64,000 nt of DNA from a virus (IMGVR_UViG_3300012344_000013:32001-96000), one strand, 5' to 3'. Numbered from the stretch's first letter, positions 45,890 through 62,290 are shown. Translations and numbers: made by a program. Notes: generated from the letters alone by a model not told the origin.

Positions 45890-46377
45890 GTGATAATAAG
45901 CAATTAGTAGATACTTCTAATTTAGATGCGAAGAATATTGAATTAGCTCAAAATATAATAGATGAAGAAGATATATCTAAAGTAAAGGATATGATAAATC
46001 TTTTTAATCTTACTCAAACTAAAAAGAATGTTATACGAGCTATGAAGCTGAGTGGTTTATATGATAGCGTTTCAGATAAGCTTATAGAACGATTACAGAA
46101 ACGACCTGATGAGATTAGCTATAAAGAACTTGTAGATATATTTAATGCTACACAAAAAGCTATTGATAGCGCTAATAAATCTCTCGGTTTAATAGATGAC
46201 GTACCGGCTATTCAGTTAAATCAACAGAATATAAATATATCAGTTGATAATGAAGATGAGTTAAGTAGAGATTCTAAGATTAAAGTTATGGAAGCAGTTA
46301 AAGCTTTCTTAGATAGTCAAAAAGATAATAATGACATAGAAATAGTGGAGGAAGAGGATGAGACATCCAATAACTAA
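45886..46377 (+). CDS. Helical hypothetical protein, possible small terminase subunit
   Basis: Helical with 'NQQNINI' strand near the C-terminus. Confidence 0.3.
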   Translation: MSDNKQLVDTSNLDAKNIELAQNIIDEEDISKVKDMINLFNLTQTKKNVIRAMKLSGLYDSVSDKLIERLQKRPDEISYKELVDIFNATQKAIDSANKSLGLIDDVPAIQLNQQNINISVDNEDELSRDSKIKVMEAVKAFLDSQKDNNDIEIVEEEDETSNN

Positions 46378-47569
46378 CATAAAGTATTCGGACGGCAGAT
46401 ATCTTAAAGATATTATAATTAAAATTATATCTATAAAAGAGAATGACCTTAATATAACCTGGGATGATGTTGCTGAATTGGTTAAGCGTGAGTGCGGGTT
46501 TGACAAGAGCGAGAGCTGGTATCGCAAAGGTGTGTGGCACAATATTCTTGACGAAGAATGCGATAAGGAAACGCCTGTCGAAGAGGAAGAACCTGAAGAA
46601 GAACTTTCTATTGAAGAAAAGATTCTTGAACTTAAAAAGCAGAAATATAAGCTTTCAGAAGAAAGAATCCAGACTAATGCTTATATAAGAAGACTTAGTA
46701 GAGAAGATACTATTCTTGAGATAGCTAAAGAAGCTGCTAAGGAAATTGGTAAACAAAAGCAGTTAATGGATTCAAGACCTATTCCTATATTTATTGAAAG
46801 TAAAGAACCTAAAGTAGGAATTCTTCAACTATCAGACTGGCATTATGGCATAGATATTGACAGTGCTTTTAATAGTTACGACCCTATTATAGCTCAAAAG
46901 CGCATTGCATATCTCTGCGATGAAGTTATTGATAATATTGCTAAAGAGAATTTAAGTGAATTGCATGTATTTGATTTAGGTGATTTAATTTGTGGTCGAA
47001 TTCATCTCACATTAAGACTTCAATCACGTATAGATACTATAACACAAACTCTTGAAGTATCTGAGATTTTATGTGAATTTCTAAATAGATTAAGTACCAC
47101 TGGAATTAAAGTTTATTTTTATTCCTGTTTAGATAATCATAGCAGAGTAGAACCTAATAAATCAGATTCGCTTGATTTAGAATCATTGGCAAGAATTATT
47201 TTTTGGTATATTAAGAATAGACTTGGGGATACTATTGAAGTTGTAGATAATAAATTTGGGCCAGATATTATTACAGCAAATATTTTAGGTCATAATGTTA
47301 TAGCAGTACATGGACATGATGACGCTCCTATAAATAATCTTGATAGACTTACAATGTTAACTAAACAACATTGGGATATTTTACTTACCGCTCATAATCA
47401 TCATTTTTACGCTGATGAGCGTAATGAAACAATTATATTAGGAAATGGTACTCTTATGGGTACTGACCAATATGCTGAGAAAAAAAGACTTTCCTCAAAG
47501 CCTTCACAGAATCTTATTATAGCAACAAAAGATAATGTTATTAGTAACATTAAAAGGATATTGGTTTAA
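46358..47569 (+). CDS. Calcineurin-like metallophosphoesterase with N-terminal HTH/coiled coil
   Basis: SDWHYG, LGDLI, DNHSR, HGH, AHNHH. Confidence 0.8.
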   Translation: MRHPITNIKYSDGRYLKDIIIKIISIKENDLNITWDDVAELVKRECGFDKSESWYRKGVWHNILDEECDKETPVEEEEPEEELSIEEKILELKKQKYKLSEERIQTNAYIRRLSREDTILEIAKEAAKEIGKQKQLMDSRPIPIFIESKEPKVGILQLSDWHYGIDIDSAFNSYDPIIAQKRIAYLCDEVIDNIAKENLSELHVFDLGDLICGRIHLTLRLQSRIDTITQTLEVSEILCEFLNRLSTTGIKVYFYSCLDNHSRVEPNKSDSLDLESLARIIFWYIKNRLGDTIEVVDNKFGPDIITANILGHNVIAVHGHDDAPINNLDRLTMLTKQHWDILLTAHNHHFYADERNETIILGNGTLMGTDQYAEKKRLSSKPSQNLIIATKDNVISNIKRILV

Positions 47570-47592
47570 TACTAATATCCTTTATTTTTTTT
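47553..47592 (+). terminator. Rho-independent terminator
   Basis: AAAGGATATTGGT/ACTAATATCCTTT stem followed by a T run. Confidence 0.7.
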
Positions 47593-47594
47593 AG

Positions 47595-47623
47595 TTGATT
47601 TATTATGTATTATGTAGTATAAT
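47595..47623 (+). promoter_or_regulatory. Sigma-A promoter of the DNA modification operon
   Basis: TTGATT-17bp-TATAAT. Confidence 0.75.
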
Positions 47624-47655
47624 ACATATAAATAAAATATAAGGAGATATTATAG

Positions 47656-48174
47656 ATGAATATTATAATAGAAGGTCCTAATGGTACTGGAAAGACTACA
47701 TTTATAAATAAACTTCTTGCTTGTAAAGAATTTGAAAATTATAATGTAGAGCATTTAACAGCAAGTTGTCCTAATGACTATGAATTTCATAAAAGATTAC
47801 TATTGAATGATAATACTATATTTGATAGATTTTTTATAGGTGAAATGGTGTATCCTAAGATATATAAAAGAGCTTTTAAGATTTCTACTCATGAGATACA
47901 GCAGCTTTGCAATGATTTTGCAGATAGTACTATCATTGTATTTATAGATGCAGATTATGGATTTATTTGTGACTCTTTGAAAAAAAGAGGAGAAGAGATA
48001 GATATGAATTTCATAGATACAGAAAAGCAACTATTTAATGAAGCAGTAGATTCTCTTAAAAACATTAAGATTTATAAAATAAAACATCATGCAACTGGTT
48101 GTTTATATGGTTCAGAGAAGTCTGATGATTATTATATAAATAAAATTAGAAATGATTATACGGAGATGAAATAA
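47656..48174 (+). CDS. dNMP kinase (thymidylate-kinase-like)
   Basis: 'IIIEGPNGTGKTT', 'FDRFFIGE.VY'. Confidence 0.85.
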   Translation: MNIIIEGPNGTGKTTFINKLLACKEFENYNVEHLTASCPNDYEFHKRLLLNDNTIFDRFFIGEMVYPKIYKRAFKISTHEIQQLCNDFADSTIIVFIDADYGFICDSLKKRGEEIDMNFIDTEKQLFNEAVDSLKNIKIYKIKHHATGCLYGSEKSDDYYINKIRNDYTEMK

Positions 48175-49319
48175 TGAAGTTATTGATGCTTAATCCTATG
48201 CAAGGTGTAGGTAAAGAAGAACTCGGACATATAGGTGATTATGAACAGATGGGACTAGCTAAAAAATGCGTTGAATTAGGCCACACCGTTCATATAATTA
48301 AAATGAATAAAAATATAATTAGTAGTTTTAATGGTATTACTTATAAACATTTTGATAATCTCGATGATTTAGATTCTTATGATTATCTGTTTATACAGAA
48401 TTTTGCACCTAATATTTTTGGTGGTGTAGTAATTCCTCGTTGGGTAGATAGTTATAAACTAATGGCTAGTTTTAAGAAACCTATTTGCTACATGTTTAGT
48501 GATTTGCGTTTGCATTTGAAACAAATGTGGAGAATGTTTGCTAATAAAGATTTATCTAATTTTCCTGGGCTTTGTGAAAAAGATGTAAAAATAACTTCTG
48601 ATATTATATATGTTTGTCAAGGTTATGATGATGCTTTGAATTATAAGTATTCTCATAAAAAGGGTTTATATACAGAAGGTCTGAATGTTACTAAAGTACT
48701 AAAATATCCTTATTATTTTGCACCTATTAGTTTAATGGATTCTAAATATTTTGATATAAATAGAGAATATAATCCCAATAGAGAATATGATTTGTATTAT
48801 GGAGCTAGTTCTTTAAGAGATGGGAAAAGAAATGAGGAATTTTTAGATTATTTCTTTAATAGAGATATTAGAACTGCTATGTATGGTTCTGTAAAGTTAG
48901 AACAGTTCAAGATGGATTTTACTGGATATAAGGTTCCTGAAATAAATTCAAAGCTTAAACAAACTGGTGTAGTTGATGAGAATAAGCGTGGATTTGCTAC
49001 AATTCTTATGGGTGATAAGGATTATAGAAATAATATGATTACTCTTAGAGTATACGAATCGTTATTAGCTGATATGGTTTGTTTTGTAGATTATAAATTC
49101 GATAGTAATAAAGTTATATTCAAAGATTCTGAATTTTTGAAAGATTATCTATATGTTAAATCTGGGAAAGAATTAGAAACTAAAATTAAAGAACTTAAAA
49201 ATGATTCTAAATTATTGCATAAAGTAATTGAAGAGCAGAGAAAAGTGATGTATAATGCTTTTAGTCAAGATAAGTTCAAAGAACAAACTAGAATTTTACT
49301 TGAACAAATATGCAAATAA
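48174..49319 (+). CDS. bgt: DNA beta-glucosyltransferase (T4 BGT-like)
   Basis: Colinear motifs recalled from T4 BGT: N.FGG, 'MA..K..I.Y.F.D.RL', 'QG', 'D..YG...R.G.R', 'GDK.Y..N.ITLRV.E..(A/S)D....D..FD'. Confidence 0.85.
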   Translation: MKLLMLNPMQGVGKEELGHIGDYEQMGLAKKCVELGHTVHIIKMNKNIISSFNGITYKHFDNLDDLDSYDYLFIQNFAPNIFGGVVIPRWVDSYKLMASFKKPICYMFSDLRLHLKQMWRMFANKDLSNFPGLCEKDVKITSDIIYVCQGYDDALNYKYSHKKGLYTEGLNVTKVLKYPYYFAPISLMDSKYFDINREYNPNREYDLYYGASSLRDGKRNEEFLDYFFNRDIRTAMYGSVKLEQFKMDFTGYKVPEINSKLKQTGVVDENKRGFATILMGDKDYRNNMITLRVYESLLADMVCFVDYKFDSNKVIFKDSEFLKDYLYVKSGKELETKIKELKNDSKLLHKVIEEQRKVMYNAFSQDKFKEQTRILLEQICK

Positions 49320-49332
49320 AGAAGGTAAGTAG

Positions 49333-50259
49333 ATGTACAAAAATTTTCAAGAAGCTTATTATAGCGTGTTAAAAGATGTTTACGTTAACGGCGATTCTGT
49401 AACAGTACGCGGTTTAGAAATGCACGAAAAGATTCCATATTATTTTGAAATAGCTAATCCAAGAGATAGACTATTAAATATTGATTGCAGGAAGAATACT
49501 AGAAAGTATACATTTGGAGAACTAATGTGGTATTTATCTGGTAGAGATGACGTAGCTTTTATAAGTAAGTATTCTAAAGTATGGGGTAGACTTTCTGATG
49601 ATGGAATCCACAGTAATTCGGCATATGGAAAGTATATATTTAAGCCTATGCCTAATATAGGATTTGGTTCGGAATATACTGGTTCTAATGACCCTAATTA
49701 TAATTCTAATCTTTCATTCAAAACACAATGGGATTACGTTAAAGAGATATTGCAAAAGGACCCTTATTCTAGACAAGCAGTTATTCATATAAAACCTGTT
49801 CAAATGTATGATACCAAAGATATAACTTGTACTTATTTTCTTCAATTTTTTATTAGAAATAATAAATTGGATTTAGTAGTTGGTATGCGTTCAAACGATA
49901 TTATATATGGCACTACTTATGACATATTTATGTTTACATTTATGCAAGAATTGATGGCTGCGGAACTAGGAATAGATGTGGGTACATATAAGCATTTTGC
50001 AAGTAATATGCATGTTTATATGAAAGATAAAGAAATAGTAGAGAAGATACTAAGAGAAGACGCAGCTAGTAGAAGTACATTCGCATTTGATAAGATTCCA
50101 TCTAATTTTAGAGAGTATGATTTGCCGATTTTATTAGAATTAGAAAAAGCATATTGGGAGCATAAAGATGATTCAAATGCAGTTGATATTTATACTAAAA
50201 TGGGTTATTATACGTTAAGTAATGTAGGTAGACAGTTATTTAGTTTACTTATAGATTAA
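49333..50259 (+). CDS. dCMP hydroxymethylase (thymidylate synthase superfamily)
   Basis: TS fold ('EL.WYLSG', 'SRQA', catalytic Cys in 'DITCT', 'MRSND') with Asp at the specificity position ('GTTYD') and 'MHVY'. Confidence 0.75.
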   Translation: MYKNFQEAYYSVLKDVYVNGDSVTVRGLEMHEKIPYYFEIANPRDRLLNIDCRKNTRKYTFGELMWYLSGRDDVAFISKYSKVWGRLSDDGIHSNSAYGKYIFKPMPNIGFGSEYTGSNDPNYNSNLSFKTQWDYVKEILQKDPYSRQAVIHIKPVQMYDTKDITCTYFLQFFIRNNKLDLVVGMRSNDIIYGTTYDIFMFTFMQELMAAELGIDVGTYKHFASNMHVYMKDKEIVEKILREDAASRSTFAFDKIPSNFREYDLPILLELEKAYWEHKDDSNAVDIYTKMGYYTLSNVGRQLFSLLID

Positions 50260-50270
50260 GGAGGATTTGT

Positions 50271-50762
50271 ATGAGGATTTGTAGAATAAGAGATGTAAAA
50301 CTTCCTAATAGAGGAACAGATAAATCAGCTGGGATTGATTTCTTTGTTCCAGAGAATACGGGAGATTTTGTAAATGCGTTTGTAGATAAGAATAAAGATA
50401 TTACTATAGATGATAATGGTATTTTTATTGAGCCTGGTCAGCGTGTAAATATTCCCAGTGGCATCAAAGCAAATGTACCTGAAGGGTATGCACTAATAGC
50501 TTATAATAAATCGGGTGTTAGCTTGAAATATGGCCTTGATATCGGCGCAAGTGTAGTAGATGAGGATTATCAAGGAGAGATACATCTTTCATTAGTAAAT
50601 ACTTCTAATAAGCAAGTTAAACTCGAATATGGGCAGAAGATAATTCAGTTTATTTTAATACCTGTATTCTACGATAATATTGAAGAAGTTTCTGAAAAAA
50701 ATTGTTTTGATTTTGAAACTCAACGTGGTTCAGGAGCGTTTGGTTCTACAGGAGTTAAATAA
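50271..50762 (+). CDS. dut: Trimeric dUTPase-family pyrophosphatase
   Basis: 'AGIDF', 'KSG', 'VVDEDYQGEI', 'RGSGAFGSTG'. Confidence 0.88.
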   Translation: MRICRIRDVKLPNRGTDKSAGIDFFVPENTGDFVNAFVDKNKDITIDDNGIFIEPGQRVNIPSGIKANVPEGYALIAYNKSGVSLKYGLDIGASVVDEDYQGEIHLSLVNTSNKQVKLEYGQKIIQFILIPVFYDNIEEVSEKNCFDFETQRGSGAFGSTGVK

Positions 50763-51151: not shown

Positions 51152-51323
51152 TCAAGAGCTATGGGCTAAGTTAGAATACTGCTTAGCCCATTATGATAAA
51201 GTATTCATAAATGGCGAGGAAATAAAAGATTTAGATGCTTATATGTCAGGTAAAACAATAATTGATATTAAATGGGAAGACATTATTGTTAAAACTAATC
51301 ATATGCGAATAGTTGGTGAGTAA
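51138..51323 (+). CDS. Small hypothetical protein, likely start at ATG 51138 (MKITNQ)
   Basis: GAGG RBS upstream; coupled to the next gene. Confidence 0.45.
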   Translation: MKITNQELWAKLEYCLAHYDKVFINGEEIKDLDAYMSGKTIIDIKWEDIIVKTNHMRIVGE

Positions 51324-52027
51324 TGAAGGAATATTTTGTAGTAACAGATGTACATGGATTTTATTCCATTTTAATCAAAGCACTTAGAGATGCAGGATTT
51401 GAGGAAGGCAATCCTAATCATATTCTTATTTCTTGTGGAGATTTACTTGATAGAGGCCCTGAGCCTTTGCAGTGTCTTAAGTTCGTAAATAAATTATTTA
51501 CCGAGAATAGAGCTATCCTTATAAGAGGTAATCATGAGGACCTTATGGATGACATGATTGAAAGAGGGTTTCAATTAGCTCACGATAAGCATAATGGTAC
51601 TATAGAAACTGCAAGAATTCTTACAAATCATTCTGAAAGAGATATCGATTGGATATGGGAATCTATAAGTGATATGGTTGTTCAAAGCGATTACAATCTT
51701 TATAGAGCTTCATTAGTAAACAATTACGAATTAAATGATTATATATTTGTACACGGTTGGGTTCCTAGTGAAACATCTGACTGGAAGCATGCTTGCTGGC
51801 TTAATGGAATGGAAGAGTGGCATAGAGGTAATATCATAGAAAATAAAACTATTGTATGCGGACATTGGTATACTTCTTTTGGACATTACTATTATGGTGA
51901 TGCTAAAAGTGAATGGGGACCTGAGGCTAATTTTAATCCATTTGTAGGAAAAGGTATTATAGCACTGGATGCGTGTACAGCATATAGTAAGCAAATAAAC
52001 GTATTCAAGTTTGAGGTAAAAGAATGA
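51323..52027 (+). CDS. Ser/Thr phosphatase-like metallophosphoesterase
   Basis: DVHG, GDLLDRG, RGNHE, VHG, GH motifs. Confidence 0.88.
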   Translation: MKEYFVVTDVHGFYSILIKALRDAGFEEGNPNHILISCGDLLDRGPEPLQCLKFVNKLFTENRAILIRGNHEDLMDDMIERGFQLAHDKHNGTIETARILTNHSERDIDWIWESISDMVVQSDYNLYRASLVNNYELNDYIFVHGWVPSETSDWKHACWLNGMEEWHRGNIIENKTIVCGHWYTSFGHYYYGDAKSEWGPEANFNPFVGKGIIALDACTAYSKQINVFKFEVKE

Positions 52028-52628: not shown

Positions 52629-53315
52629 TTGAAAGAAATAATATTAGATGAGAATATTCTTACAAGGTCAGAAGAAGTAGATTTAGTAAAAGAAGCTAAG
52701 TTAGTAAAAGAAATAGTATCTGAACTTAAACATGTAATAAAGCATACTGATGGAATGGTAAGTTTATCAGCTCCTCAAATAGGATATTATAAAAGAATAT
52801 TTGTAGTAAAGTATGGGGATAATTTCAGAACTTATATAAATCCTATGTTAACAGAAGCAACAGGATTTTGTATGTCAAGAGAAACATGTCATAGTAATCC
52901 TAATAAAAAATATATAATTCCTAGATGTACAAAGATTAAAGTAGCTTATATGATTCCTGAAGATTCAGAAAATTATACTGAAGAAGAGTTAGCAGGAATG
53001 TCAGCAATAGTAATACAACATCAGATAAATCATCTAGATAGTGTACCTCTTGATTGTTTAGGATTAGAGATAGATGAAGATTTTGAGAATGCTTCTGATG
53101 AAGAGCAAGATGAGATTATAAATATGTTTATAAAATCTCTTCAGAAAAGACAAGATAATCTTATAGAAGAGATAAATAAAGATAAAGAGCTTAAGAAAGC
53201 AATGACAGCAATAGATAATGTAATAAACACTGTGAAAGGAGAGAAAGGTACTACTGGAAAAGTAATACCTATTAAAAATGGCAAACGAAGTAAAGATTCA
53301 AATAAAGAGAAATAA
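52629..53315 (+). CDS. def: Peptide deformylase homologue with degenerate active-site motifs
   Basis: 'SLSAPQIG' (canonical GxGLAAxQIG), 'YINP', 'ETCHS' (EGCLS), 'QHQINHL' (QHExDHL). Confidence 0.8.
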   Translation: MKEIILDENILTRSEEVDLVKEAKLVKEIVSELKHVIKHTDGMVSLSAPQIGYYKRIFVVKYGDNFRTYINPMLTEATGFCMSRETCHSNPNKKYIIPRCTKIKVAYMIPEDSENYTEEELAGMSAIVIQHQINHLDSVPLDCLGLEIDEDFENASDEEQDEIINMFIKSLQKRQDNLIEEINKDKELKKAMTAIDNVINTVKGEKGTTGKVIPIKNGKRSKDSNKEK

Positions 53316-61120: not shown

Positions 61121-62290
61121 ATGAGTAGTAAAGTTTTTGATTTGATAGAAGAAGAGAAGAAAAGACAAAGAGAGAATATAGAGTTAATAGCTTCAGAGAA
61201 TTTTGTAAGTGAAGATATTCTGAGAGCAGTGGGTTCTTGTTTAACTAATAAATATGCTGAAGGATTTCCTGGAAAAAGATACTATGGAGGTTGCGAAGTA
61301 GTAGATAAGATAGAGAATTACTGTATTGAACAGTGGCAAAAGGTATTTAATACAGACTATCACGTTAACGTTCAACCCCATAGTGGTTCTCAAGCTAATT
61401 TCGCAGCATATTCAGCAGCGCTGTCTCCAGGAGATACTATACTATCGATGTCTCTTAGCAATGGTGGGCATCTAACTCATGGCTCTAAAGTTAATTTTAG
61501 TGGAAAACTCTACAATATAATAGAATATAATGTAGATGAAAATGGTTTTATAGATTATAATGATATTTATAATAAGATTAAAGAATATAAGCCCAATCTA
61601 GTATTAGCAGGAGCATCTGCTTATCCTAGAATAATTGATTTTAAGCATATAAAAGAAATTATTAACGAATTTAGTAATGAAGATTATAAACCTTACTTTA
61701 TGGTTGATATGGCTCATATTGCTGGATTAGTAGCAGCTGGAGAGCACCCTTCTCCTTTCAGGCTAGCGGATATTGTAACTACAACTACTCATAAGACTCT
61801 TAGGGGACCCAGAGGTGGCTTAATATTTTGTAAACCTGAGCTAGCTAAGAAAGTAGATAGTGCGGTATTTCCTAATAGTCAAGGTGGACCTTTACTTCAT
61901 GTAATAGCTGGAAAAGCTATATGTGCTGAAGAAGCTCAAACAGATACTTATAAGAAATATATTAAAAATGTTAAAATAAATTGTAAAGCTATGGCAGATA
62001 CTTTTATTAAAATGGGCTATGATGTTATAACGAATGGTACAGATAATCATTTGTTTTTAATTGATTTTTCTAAAACCCATCCCAATATAACTGGGAAACA
62101 AGTTCAAGATGAGCTAGATAAGCATCATATAACTCTTAATAAAAATTGTGTACCTAATGAACAGCGTTCTCCTATGCAAACAAGTGGAGTTAGAATAGGT
62201 ACTGCTGCTATGACTACTAAAGGATATACTGTAGATGACTTTATAGAAATAGCTCATAAGATAGATAAAATTATTTCAAGTCTTGGTTGA
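61121..62290 (+). CDS. glyA: Serine hydroxymethyltransferase
   Basis: 'LIASENF', 'NKYAEG.PGKRYYGG', 'GGHLTHG', 'DMAHIAGL', 'TTTHKTLRGPRGG'. Confidence 0.97.
   Translation: MSSKVFDLIEEEKKRQRENIELIASENFVSEDILRAVGSCLTNKYAEGFPGKRYYGGCEVVDKIENYCIEQWQKVFNTDYHVNVQPHSGSQANFAAYSAALSPGDTILSMSLSNGGHLTHGSKVNFSGKLYNIIEYNVDENGFIDYNDIYNKIKEYKPNLVLAGASAYPRIIDFKHIKEIINEFSNEDYKPYFMVDMAHIAGLVAAGEHPSPFRLADIVTTTTHKTLRGPRGGLIFCKPELAKKVDSAVFPNSQGGPLLHVIAGKAICAEEAQTDTYKKYIKNVKINCKAMADTFIKMGYDVITNGTDNHLFLIDFSKTHPNITGKQVQDELDKHHITLNKNCVPNEQRSPMQTSGVRIGTAAMTTKGYTVDDFIEIAHKIDKIISSLG

Follow-up and report, generated by a model that had tools for sequence, protein, structure and literature searches.

Probable glycosylation of 5-hydroxymethylcytosine in the DNA of an uncultured phage with a putative anaerobic Clostridia host

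Does a phage outside the T-even group, probably propagating in an anaerobic Gram-positive host, disguise its DNA by replacing cytosine with glycosylated 5-hydroxymethylcytosine (hmC)? The question is raised by a cassette of four tightly packed genes in an uncultured, 127-kb phage (window 47656-50762, + strand), preceded by a terminator-like hairpin and a promoter-like site; the window is the whole stretch of 64,000 nucleotides analysed (IMGVR_UViG_3300012344_000013:32001-96000). A sequence-only reading had described four open reading frames here, and all are present on the + strand at the coordinates listed below. The motifs it quoted (GDKDYRNNMITLRVYE in the glycosyltransferase (GT), MRSNDIIYGTTYD in the thymidylate-synthase (TS) homologue) occur in the translations, and the T4 β-glucosyltransferase (BGT) string it gave for comparison is correct by alignment to PDB 1bgt. 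Sequence comparison and a structural model make it probable that cytosine in the phage DNA is replaced by glycosylated hmC, most likely in β-glucosylated form. The argument draws on the following features.

47553..47583, + strand: terminator-like hairpin, 13-bp stem with T-run, closing the upstream exonuclease gene
47595..47623, + strand: sigma-70-like promoter candidate, TTGATT-17-TATAAT, by consensus match only
47656..48174, + strand: P-loop nucleotide kinase, 172 aa, thymidylate-kinase-like and similar to SPbeta YorR; putative hm-dCMP kinase
48174..49319, + strand: DNA β-glucosyltransferase homologue, 381 aa, T4 BGT family, PF09198 (CAZy GT63)
49333..50259, + strand: TS homologue with dCMP hydroxymethylase signature, 308 aa, PF00303
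50271..50762, + strand: trimeric dUTPase-family enzyme, 163 aa, PF00692; dUTPase, or possibly a dUTPase also hydrolysing dCTP
61121..62290, + strand: serine hydroxymethyltransferase (SHMT), PF00464 at 2.9e-150

The kinase, GT, TS and dUTPase genes follow one another with a 1-nt overlap and gaps of 13 and 11 nt. The promoter candidate matches 10 of the 12 consensus bases and lies directly 3' of the hairpin, 33 nt before the start codon of the kinase gene. As to the proposal that a single promoter drives the operon, a consensus-like site does exist at 47595, but shuffled sequence contains such matches at least as often; from its sequence, the promoter is plausible. A search 3' of 50762 found no terminator, and the transcript may therefore continue into downstream genes.

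By sequence and predicted structure, the GT is a full-length homologue of T4 BGT with the same fold and with the catalytic and UDP-binding residues kept. In the HMM search against the T4 BGT family that the sequence-only reading had asked for, it exceeded the curated cut-off of PF09198 (68.1 bits against 27, 1e-18); it also matches phrog_7922 (4.1e-51, residues 34-364) and PDB 1bgt (E 1.6e-34, residues 38-360), with an identity to T4 BGT of about 26-31%. The two-domain GT-B fold of the AlphaFold model (pLDDT 89.9, pTM 0.89) superposes on T4 BGT, and Foldseek places six T4 BGT entries on top (E 1.8e-24 to 3e-21, TM 0.74-0.88), followed by the next fold only at 8e-8. Conserved in the alignment are T4 residues Glu22, Asn70, Asp100, Ser189, Arg191, Arg195, Tyr261, Arg269 and Glu272, among which we take Asp100 to be the catalytic base, Glu22 to be catalytic, and Arg191, Arg195, Arg269, Glu272 and Ser189 to bind UDP. 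The equivalents of Asp100, Arg191, Arg195, Arg269 and Glu272 (here Asp110, Arg215, Arg219, Arg292 and Glu295) are invariant across 20 diverse homologues. To our knowledge, glucosylation of hmC DNA is the sole activity on record for this family. Metagenomic BGT homologues fall into about 300 clusters when grouped at 50% identity, and usually adjoin TS homologues of the kind found here.

Rather unlikely is a variant with the same chemistry in which the BGT homologue uses another host UDP-hexose, so that a sugar other than glucose, or more than one, is attached. The low identity to T4 BGT would allow for it, and BGT cassettes elsewhere hold sugar-nucleotide genes, namely a UDP-galactopyranose mutase in Lactobacillus phage ATCCB, an NTP_transferase in contigs L099 and L101, and CofD with NTP_transf_3 in L103. 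However, phmmer probes of the source genome detected no second BGT, no alpha-gt-like second GT, no NTP-transferase and no UDP-galactopyranose mutase, and the residues that presumably contact glucose in the T4 BGT/UDP-glucose structures (Glu22, Asp100, Ser189 and Tyr261; PDB 1j39, 1nzd) are all retained.

If the GT acts on hmC, the TS homologue, which is the sole TS-family gene of the genome (PF00303, 9e-23, 81 bits, cut-off 24.3), ought to supply it. Its top PDB match is the CMP hydroxymethylase MilA (E 1e-33); it is 26% identical to T4 gp42 (E 4e-12) and 37-40% identical to the homologues of Enterococcus phages VPE25 and nattely, with which its active-site signature is identical. In ThyA numbering, the catalytic Cys146 is aligned, Asp169 and Ser167 are kept, and the exchanges L143D, N177D, H147T and Q165M are present, so that 16 of the 17 active-site positions are those of T4 gp42. 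The earlier claim that Asp stands where dUMP-specific ThyA has Asn is thereby borne out: residue 177 is Asp in the TS homologue, T4 gp42, VPE25, nattely, ATCCB, L009, L010, L099, L100, L103 and L107, and Asn in E. coli ThyA and SPO1 gp29. Position 143 is Asp in the TS homologue, T4 gp42, MilA and SPO1 gp29. L143D directs the reaction to a hydroxymethyl product by water attack as opposed to a methyl product, and N177D selects cytosine over uracil (PMC13326640). The phosphate-binding Arg127 of TS is replaced by Gln, as in the active SPO1 gp29. Taken together, the signature argues for 5hm-dCMP as the predicted product and against dTMP, hm-dUMP and the recently described 5-hydroxy-dCMP.

MilA from mildiomycin biosynthesis (PDB 5b6d, 5jnh) likewise carries Asp at the equivalents of 143 and 177, yet serves antibiotic synthesis and not DNA modification. 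It reads MRAND where the TS homologue reads MRSND, with Ala in place of the Ser167 of all TS enzymes; according to the structural work on MilA, this position reportedly contributes to the preference for CMP over dCMP.

SPO1 gp29, a pyrimidine hydroxymethylase that depends on folate and comes from a Firmicute phage, shares L143D and R127Q with the TS homologue and, at 32-34% identity, is closer to it than T4 gp42; moreover, close homologues are annotated as 'thymidylate synthase' or 'deoxyuridylate hydroxymethyltransferase'. Nevertheless, gp29, which makes hm-dUMP and replaces T rather than C, has Asn177 and departs at positions 80, 147 and 165, where the TS homologue agrees with T4 gp42. We thus give little credence to 5hm-dUMP of the SPO1 type or 5-methyl-dCMP of the XP12 type as its product, with the GT acting on hmU or a non-DNA target: for the latter nucleotide, position 143 holds the Asp of the hydroxymethylase state and not the Leu of methylating ThyA (PMC13326640), and a methyl group would offer the GT no hydroxyl.

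It is similarly improbable that the locus is an ordinary nucleotide-metabolism cluster, with a dTMP-making TS, a TMP kinase and a dUTPase, and with an incidental GT that modifies a wall polymer or protein. Genes for TS, kinase and dUTPase are often grouped in phages, and thymidylate kinase is the top family label of the kinase, but the active site of the TS homologue is of the dCMP type, the pairing of BGT and TS recurs across unrelated contigs, and the BGT family points to hmC DNA. Neither ThyX (phmmer probe) nor DHFR, the latter needed by a true TS for folate recycling, was found in the genome. The close relatives L009 and L010 encode the same cassette plus a separate ThyX, so that the role of dTMP synthase does not fall to the TS homologue there.

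The least probable alternative is a 5-hydroxy-dCMP synthase of the RB69 gp48/DLP3 gp80 type, whose product the GT would glycosylate as 5-hydroxycytosine. RB69 gp48 does align with the TS homologue, homologues of TS that combine N177D with an acidic residue 143 can produce 5-hydroxy-dCMP (PMC13326640), and the logic is shared, with dCMP modified before replication and the sugar added on DNA. However, every verified synthase carries D169N (PMC13326640), whereas the TS homologue keeps Asp169 as T4 gp42 does (RSND against RSQN in RB69 gp48). Hydroxylation requires flavin and molecular oxygen by 18O2 labelling (PMC13326640), whereas this phage has an anaerobic ribonucleotide reductase and a Clostridia-like SHMT. 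The GT is a member of the T4 BGT family and not one of the arabinosyltransferases of RB69, in whose pathway the sugar is arabinose. Hydroxymethylation of dCMP followed by BGT glycosylation, as first proposed from the sequence, withstands this alternative too and agrees with every sequence and fold test applied.

The glycosyl-hmC pathway would then proceed in four steps. The active-site signature suggests that the TS homologue converts dCMP, 5,10-methylene-tetrahydrofolate and water to 5hm-dCMP. This nucleotide would be phosphorylated by the cassette kinase, to judge from conserved linkage only, and a host NDP kinase would complete 5hm-dCTP for incorporation by the split family-A polymerase of the phage. 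After replication, the BGT homologue would attach to the hydroxymethyl group a hexose taken from a UDP-sugar of the host, both substrate and sugar being predicted. The trimeric dUTPase would keep uracil out of DNA and supply dUMP, and the phage SHMT could recharge folate because hydroxymethylation returns THF and not DHF. None of this chemistry needs oxygen, in keeping with an anaerobic host among the Clostridia, and the phage would be expected to gain protection against restriction enzymes and against some CRISPR effectors.

For the kinase, the evidence is weak, and it is at best a tentative hm-dCMP kinase. It matches phrog_761 (1.9e-18) and scores below the Pfam cut-off of 27 for both Thymidylate_kin (23.9 bits, 3.7e-5) and dNK (20.6 bits); the closest solved structure is the uncharacterised YorR (PDB 2axp, 1.4e-6). 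With its P-loop GPNGTGKT, it shows the motifs GxxGxGK[ST]T and DRF.(I/V)GE..YP common to the cassettes, and it is 30% identical to nattely gp050 (171 aa), whose reading frame lies directly 5' of the nattely TS homologue. BLASTP gave no significant alignment with T4 gp1 (best E 1.7).

The dUTPase is clearly assigned to its family (PF00692, 7e-20, 71.5 bits, cut-off 22; phrog_135, 9e-38; solved dUTPases down to 7e-20), and the motifs AGxD, xSG, D-x-D-Y-x-G, xxxQ and R-G-x-x-G-F-G-S-T-G are legible in the translation and alignments. It is also the sole NTP-pyrophosphatase-type gene found in the genome: the known dCTPase families MazG, dUTPase_2 (PF08761), HD and NUDIX are all absent, T4 gp56 as a phmmer query gave no match there, and searches of VPE25, nattely and the close relative G001 likewise yielded no MazG. 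As no known dCTPase family is encoded, a complete replacement of C is left without explanation. Seven of the lineages examined carry the dUTPase gene next to that of a dCMP-type TS homologue (the source phage and L105; L009/L010; VPE25/nattely; L100; L103; L104; and the marine contigs L107/L108). One might speculate that the trimeric dUTPase beside the dCMP-type TS is the dCTPase of these phages, a non-orthologous replacement of T4 gp56, although we regard this as doubtful. According to a 2026 preprint, a trimeric phage dUTPase whose activity extends to dCTP has yet to be reported (10.64898/2026.10.06.757002). If true, such an enzyme and the captured SHMT would together form a self-contained, O2-independent hmC supply line for anaerobes. 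A His in the column equivalent to E. coli Met98 was considered as a marker of cassette dUTPases and dropped, as it marks a large subfamily instead: it is present in 125 of 125 dUTPases (the cassette enzyme, four cassette-linked ones and the 120 nearest homologues, one of them labelled archaeal). All four sampled members of this His-bearing subfamily adjoin dCMP-type TS homologues.

The proposal of a PolA-based phage with an anaerobic Gram-positive host fits the genomic background, which includes a split PolA nearest to those of Clostridium and Streptococcus phages, the anaerobic ribonucleotide reductase NrdD, and an SHMT sharing 65-70% identity with its counterparts in Clostridia of the gut and rumen. 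An anaerobic gut or rumen member of the Clostridia is thus supported as the predicted host. The SHMT is a probable accessory source of 5,10-methylene-THF for the hydroxymethylase. In the related lineage L103, an SHMT gene lies between those of the TS homologue and the dUTPase; its product is 49% identical to that of the source phage and was captured independently. SHMT does not belong to the system in every phage: searches of VPE25, ATCCB, G001 and two BGT fragments detected none. When the 10 kb surrounding the cassette were compared by megablast with 50,697 phage records, nothing matched, and hence there is no close cultured relative. An IMG/VR search with the single GT sequence retrieved no related loci, whereas a 5-sequence GT alignment retrieved G001 as the sole true relative, plus two distant fragments.

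That such a cassette would be unexpected outside the T-even phages, as had been supposed, is contradicted by the Enterococcus phages VPE25, VFW and nattely, which hold the same four genes together, by ATCCB, in which TS and BGT genes adjoin, and by the metagenomic BGT clusters, which include another PolA phage, L100. In L099, L100 and L103, a BGT homologue is encoded no more than a few kb from a TS homologue with the active-site signature described above; in L102, which has a C-terminal TS fragment only, the visible part of the signature is kept. For VPE25 and VFW, glycosylated cytosine was shown by experiment in 2016, and VPE25 DNA is resistant to bisulfite, EcoRI and MspI, whereas PvuRts1I cleaves it (PMC4999554). 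A report on an Oenococcus phage does not mention DNA modification (PMC7838156), and the MetaGPA study adds nothing on Firmicute phages (PMC8670742).

VPE25 and VFW, phages of Enterococcus faecalis (Andrewesvirinae, as are nattely and vipetofem), resemble the source phage in having the same four families in one block, Firmicutes hosts and no MazG-type dCTPase. Their homologues are nevertheless distant (TS 37-40%, BGT about 27%, dUTPase 34% and kinase 30% identity), and the order is kinase-TS-dUTPase-BGT as opposed to kinase-BGT-TS-dUTPase. They are siphophages of 86 kb whose host is a facultative anaerobe; they encode a second, 'nucleotide sugar synthetase-like' product and lack SHMT, and megablast detects no shared backbone. 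T4 (gp42, gp1, gp56, alpha-gt, beta-gt) has a homologous dCMP hydroxymethylase and BGT, adjacent genes 42 and b-gt, and the same order of events, with hydroxymethylation before and glycosylation after replication. The designation of the operon as T4-like consequently holds for the TS homologue and the BGT and fails for the rest: gp1 and the kinase are unrelated, and in place of the dimeric, all-alpha dCTPase gp56 (PF08761) there is only a trimeric PF00692 enzyme. The source phage further differs from T4 in its family-A instead of family-B polymerase, its predicted anaerobic Gram-positive host, and the absence of an alpha-gt-like GT and of td/frd.

The core pathway is thus already known, genetically and experimentally, from T4 and from VPE25 and VFW. 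New here are the phage-encoded SHMT and the separately acquired SHMT copy inside the cassette of a related lineage; neither the repeated capture of SHMT beside a hydroxymethylase nor the lack of every known dCTPase family in these Firmicute-phage cassettes was found in the literature searched. The TET route and the 5-hydroxycytosine route to a modified cytosine both require O2, and we know of no O2-free way to a C5 hydroxyl handle on cytosine other than the route from folate and water, whose presence in phages of anaerobes therefore makes biochemical sense. If our reading is correct, large phages infecting strictly anaerobic Clostridia of the gut and rumen also use the glycosyl-hmC disguise known from T4. 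Because many restriction enzymes fail on glycosyl-hmC DNA, as do some CRISPR effectors and some enzymes for library preparation, this would bear on the reading of gut and rumen viromes and on the engineering of these phages.

The source record of the window is a 126,576-bp IMG/VR phage genome that has direct terminal repeats and a G+C content of 31%, and the genes across the window are encoded on the + strand. The cassette and its 5' flank are arranged as follows (window coordinates):

46358-47569, + strand, SbcD-like exonuclease gene (phrog_284), the upstream neighbour of the cassette
47553-47583, hairpin with a 13-bp stem and a T-run, 3' of the exonuclease gene
47595-47623, candidate promoter TTGATT-17-TATAAT, after the hairpin
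47656-48174, + strand, kinase ORF, 172 aa
48174-49319, + strand, glycosyltransferase (GT) ORF, overlapping the kinase ORF by 1 nt
49333-50259, + strand, thymidylate synthase (TS) homologue ORF, 13 nt past the GT ORF
50271-50762, + strand, dUTPase ORF, 163 aa, 11 nt past the TS homologue ORF

The sequence-only reading had described a single-promoter operon. The four packed ORFs, the 5' hairpin and the promoter-like TTGATT-17-TATAAT element are in keeping with this proposal, but a search 3' of position 50762 detected no terminator, and genes on the same strand continue. The cassette is thus operon-like at its 5' end, while its transcript may extend beyond the four genes. The motifs cited in that reading were found in the translations, and its remembered T4 string proved accurate against the T4 β-glucosyltransferase (BGT) alignment. 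Just 3' of the cassette lie a calcineurin-like phosphoesterase (51323-52027, +) and a peptide deformylase (52629-53315, +); the latter carries a Lys/Glu-rich C-terminal extension of ~85 residues, and its position is syntenic in the close relatives L009 and L010 and in the metagenome contigs L103 and L105.

The best solved match of the TS homologue is the CMP 5-hydroxymethylase MilA (1e-33), whereas true thymidylate synthases match only at ~1e-13; identity to T4 gp42 is 26%. According to criteria published in 2026, in E. coli ThyA numbering, N177D denotes cytosine and L143D/E a non-methyl product, while D169N marks the flavin- and O2-dependent 5-hydroxy-dCMP synthases (PMC13326640). We aligned the TS homologue with enzymes of known product, namely E. 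coli ThyA (dTMP), T4 gp42 (5hm-dCMP), SPO1 gp29 (5hm-dUMP) and RB69 gp48 (5ho-dCMP). Its active-site columns read E58, W80, Y94, R126, Q127, D143, C146, T147, M165, R166, S167, N168, D169, G173, D177, H207 and Y209. T4 gp42 is identical at 16 of these 17 positions, the sole exception being R127Q, which is also present in SPO1 gp29. In contrast, ThyA differs by L143, H147, Q165 and N177, SPO1 gp29 by M80, N147, N165 and N177, and RB69 gp48 by N169, V173 and F209. Position 167 is Ser instead of the Ala of MilA, which is consistent with a deoxy substrate. An O2-requiring route to 5-hydroxycytosine of the RB69 gp48 type is implausible: the TS homologue retains D169, and on ecological grounds the route is disfavoured because the genome includes a gene for NrdD, an anaerobic ribonucleotide reductase (1e-147).

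Besides the TS homologue, the genome contains no TS-family gene, and neither ThyX nor DHFR was found in it. The two closest relatives, L009 (which shares its contig with L016, record G001) and L010, have this cassette with an unchanged gene order and also carry ThyX upstream (L009:5146-5817, L010:5062-5754), so the TS homologue is not their dTMP synthase. Unlike these relatives, the phage lacks a thymidylate synthase of any kind. Their gap between exonuclease and kinase holds ThyX and three small ORFs, whereas window positions 47570-47655 hold only the terminator/promoter spacer. The TS homologue carries ~22 inserted residues (about 104-129) that the enzymes of T4, the Enterococcus phages and E. 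coli lack and that recur in L009 and L010.

The GT scores 68 bits against Pfam T4-Gluco-transf (cut-off 27), and matches phrog_7922 at 4e-51 and T4 BGT in the PDB at 1.6e-34 over nearly its full length. An AlphaFold model built with 20 homologues (pLDDT 89.9) superposes on six T4 BGT entries with TM 0.74-0.88 and E ~1e-24, while the second-ranked fold, other GT-B enzymes including T4 α-GT, reaches only ~1e-7. In a MAFFT alignment all nine T4 residues E22, N70, D100, S189, R191, R195, Y261, R269 and E272 are kept, and D100, R191, R195, R269 and E272 are unchanged across 20 diverse homologues. Because family matches, PDB match, fold and conserved residues agree, the GT can be assigned to the BGT family as firmly as sequence and predicted fold allow; its acceptor and its sugar we infer.

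The TS signature and the homology and predicted fold of the GT agree with the earlier proposal of dCMP hydroxymethylation followed by DNA glycosylation. That the phage DNA carries glycosyl-hydroxymethylcytosine (hmC) is therefore well supported at these levels, and we consider it probable. The description of the cassette as T4-like applies to hydroxymethylase and BGT, the two signature enzymes with homologues in T4, but not to the kinase and NTPase roles, which are filled by unrelated proteins. The kinase has a P-loop and matches phrog_761 'thymidylate kinase' (2e-18), with Pfam matches below cut-off; among solved structures it comes closest to the uncharacterised SPbeta YorR, and comparison with T4 gp1 revealed no similarity. 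Its homologues immediately precede the TS homologue in the Enterococcus phages nattely and VPE25, the Lactobacillus phage ATCCB and contig L099, stand first in the L009 and L010 cassettes, and occur elsewhere within the block in L100. From this gene linkage we infer that it may act as an hm-dCMP kinase.

Serine hydroxymethyltransferase (SHMT) makes 5,10-methylene-THF, and the phage encodes one:

61121-62290, + strand, full-length SHMT (3e-150), just after NrdD

SHMT alone would complete the cofactor cycle, because a hydroxymethylase, unlike TS, does not oxidise the folate, the methylene intermediate being attacked by water (PMC8670742). The absence of DHFR fits such a cycle. Since G001, VPE25 and ATCCB all lack SHMT, the gene is accessory. 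It also occurs in about 21 records of Aeromonas T4-like phages. In L103, whose TS homologue is 68% identical to that of the window, an SHMT (L103:3732-4976) lies between TS homologue and dUTPase. The two SHMTs share only 49% identity, less than the window SHMT shares with bacterial enzymes, which suggests independent captures. The L103 cassette (L103:1-5498, on ENA contig ERZ27433449; homologues occur on contigs as long as 158 kb) is more elaborate: it comprises a BGT homologue, CofD-like (PF01933) and IspD/NTP_transf_3-like proteins, an hmC-signature TS homologue, SHMT and dUTPase, and may point to an undescribed form of cytosine hypermodification in this sister lineage. T4 cd is a dCMP deaminase that supplies dUMP to thymidylate synthase; a dCMP/cytidine deaminase-family gene (PF00383, 1.4e-11) outside the window, at G000:C1:115732-116094 of the source record, would supply dUMP to the host thymidylate synthase.

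The 163-aa enzyme is a canonical trimeric dUTPase (PF00692, with all five motifs present; matches to solved dUTPases reach 7e-20), whereas the T4 dCTPase gp56 belongs to the dimeric all-alpha family PF08761. Because MazG, dUTPase_2, HD and NUDIX proteins were all absent from the phage genome, the dCTP-excluding step of T4 has no recognisable counterpart here; MazG is likewise absent from VPE25, nattely, ATCCB and G001. The trimeric enzyme may accept a broader set of substrates, polymerase or nucleotide pools may discriminate, or replacement may be incomplete. A preprint notes the lack of any report of extended hydrolytic (dCTPase) activity in a trimeric dUTPase from a phage (10.64898/2026.10.06.757002). 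Four close dUTPase homologues were sampled (L105, L103, L104 and L107/L108); all lie within ~2.5 kb of an Asp177 TS homologue, with the full hmC signature in three, including the marine L107/L108. In this small and biased sample, linkage of the dUTPase to dCMP-type TS homologues is suggestive. The dUTPase of the phage has an insertion of ~21 residues after motif I (residues about 28-49) that is missing from the L009/L010 dUTPases and probably present in close homologues of ~164 aa, which suggests exchange of the dUTPase gene between lineages. In L104 (2993-3733) the TS homologue adjoins a dCMP deaminase and the dUTPase homologue, and its active site (R143, S147, S169, H173, D177, F209) fits no characterised product class. 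L107 (2592-5466) and L108, contigs of 62 and 289 kb encoding a PolIII alpha subunit, carry the hmC-signature TS homologue beside a dUTPase 59% identical to that of the window, with an NAD-dependent sugar epimerase/dehydratase, a dCMP deaminase and no BGT in view.

The genome encodes a split family-A polymerase, as expected for a PolA-based phage. Among cultured phages, this polymerase is closest to those of Clostridium phage phiCTP1 and Streptococcus phage Dp-1 (~38%). The SHMT is 65-70% identical to those of Oscillospiraceae, Christensenella, Lachnospiraceae and other Clostridia MAGs from rumen and gut. Together with NrdD, these matches support an anaerobic Bacillota host, in line with the anaerobic Gram-positive host proposed earlier.

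The expectation that such a cassette would be unusual outside T-even phages is not borne out, given the Enterococcus phages, ATCCB and metagenome clusters. A tblastn search of 50,697 phage records with the GT matched 122, mostly T-even relatives, and the others include nine Enterococcus phages and ATCCB. In nattely and VPE25, kinase-like gene, TS homologue, dUTPase and b-gt are contiguous, and each of the four proteins has its homologue in the window; ATCCB has kinase-like gene, TS homologue, BGT and UDP-galactopyranose mutase contiguous. BGT-family clusters numbered 299 at E <= 1e-3 and 169 at 1e-10 when 1.84 billion cluster representatives were searched exhaustively with HMMER. About ten gene contexts were sampled among these roughly 300 clusters. 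Two of four distant clusters have a full-length hmC-signature TS homologue nearby, and a third a C-terminal TS fragment keeping the visible part of the signature; among them, L100 is a family-A-polymerase phage that also encodes kinase, dUTPase and dCMP deaminase. The DNA of VPE25 and VFW is resistant to bisulfite conversion and to EcoRI and MspI yet is cut by PvuRts1I, and this behaviour was attributed to the BGT homologue (Duerkop et al. 2016, PMC4999554). This kind of system is already known and has experimental precedent, and the window phage is a further case.
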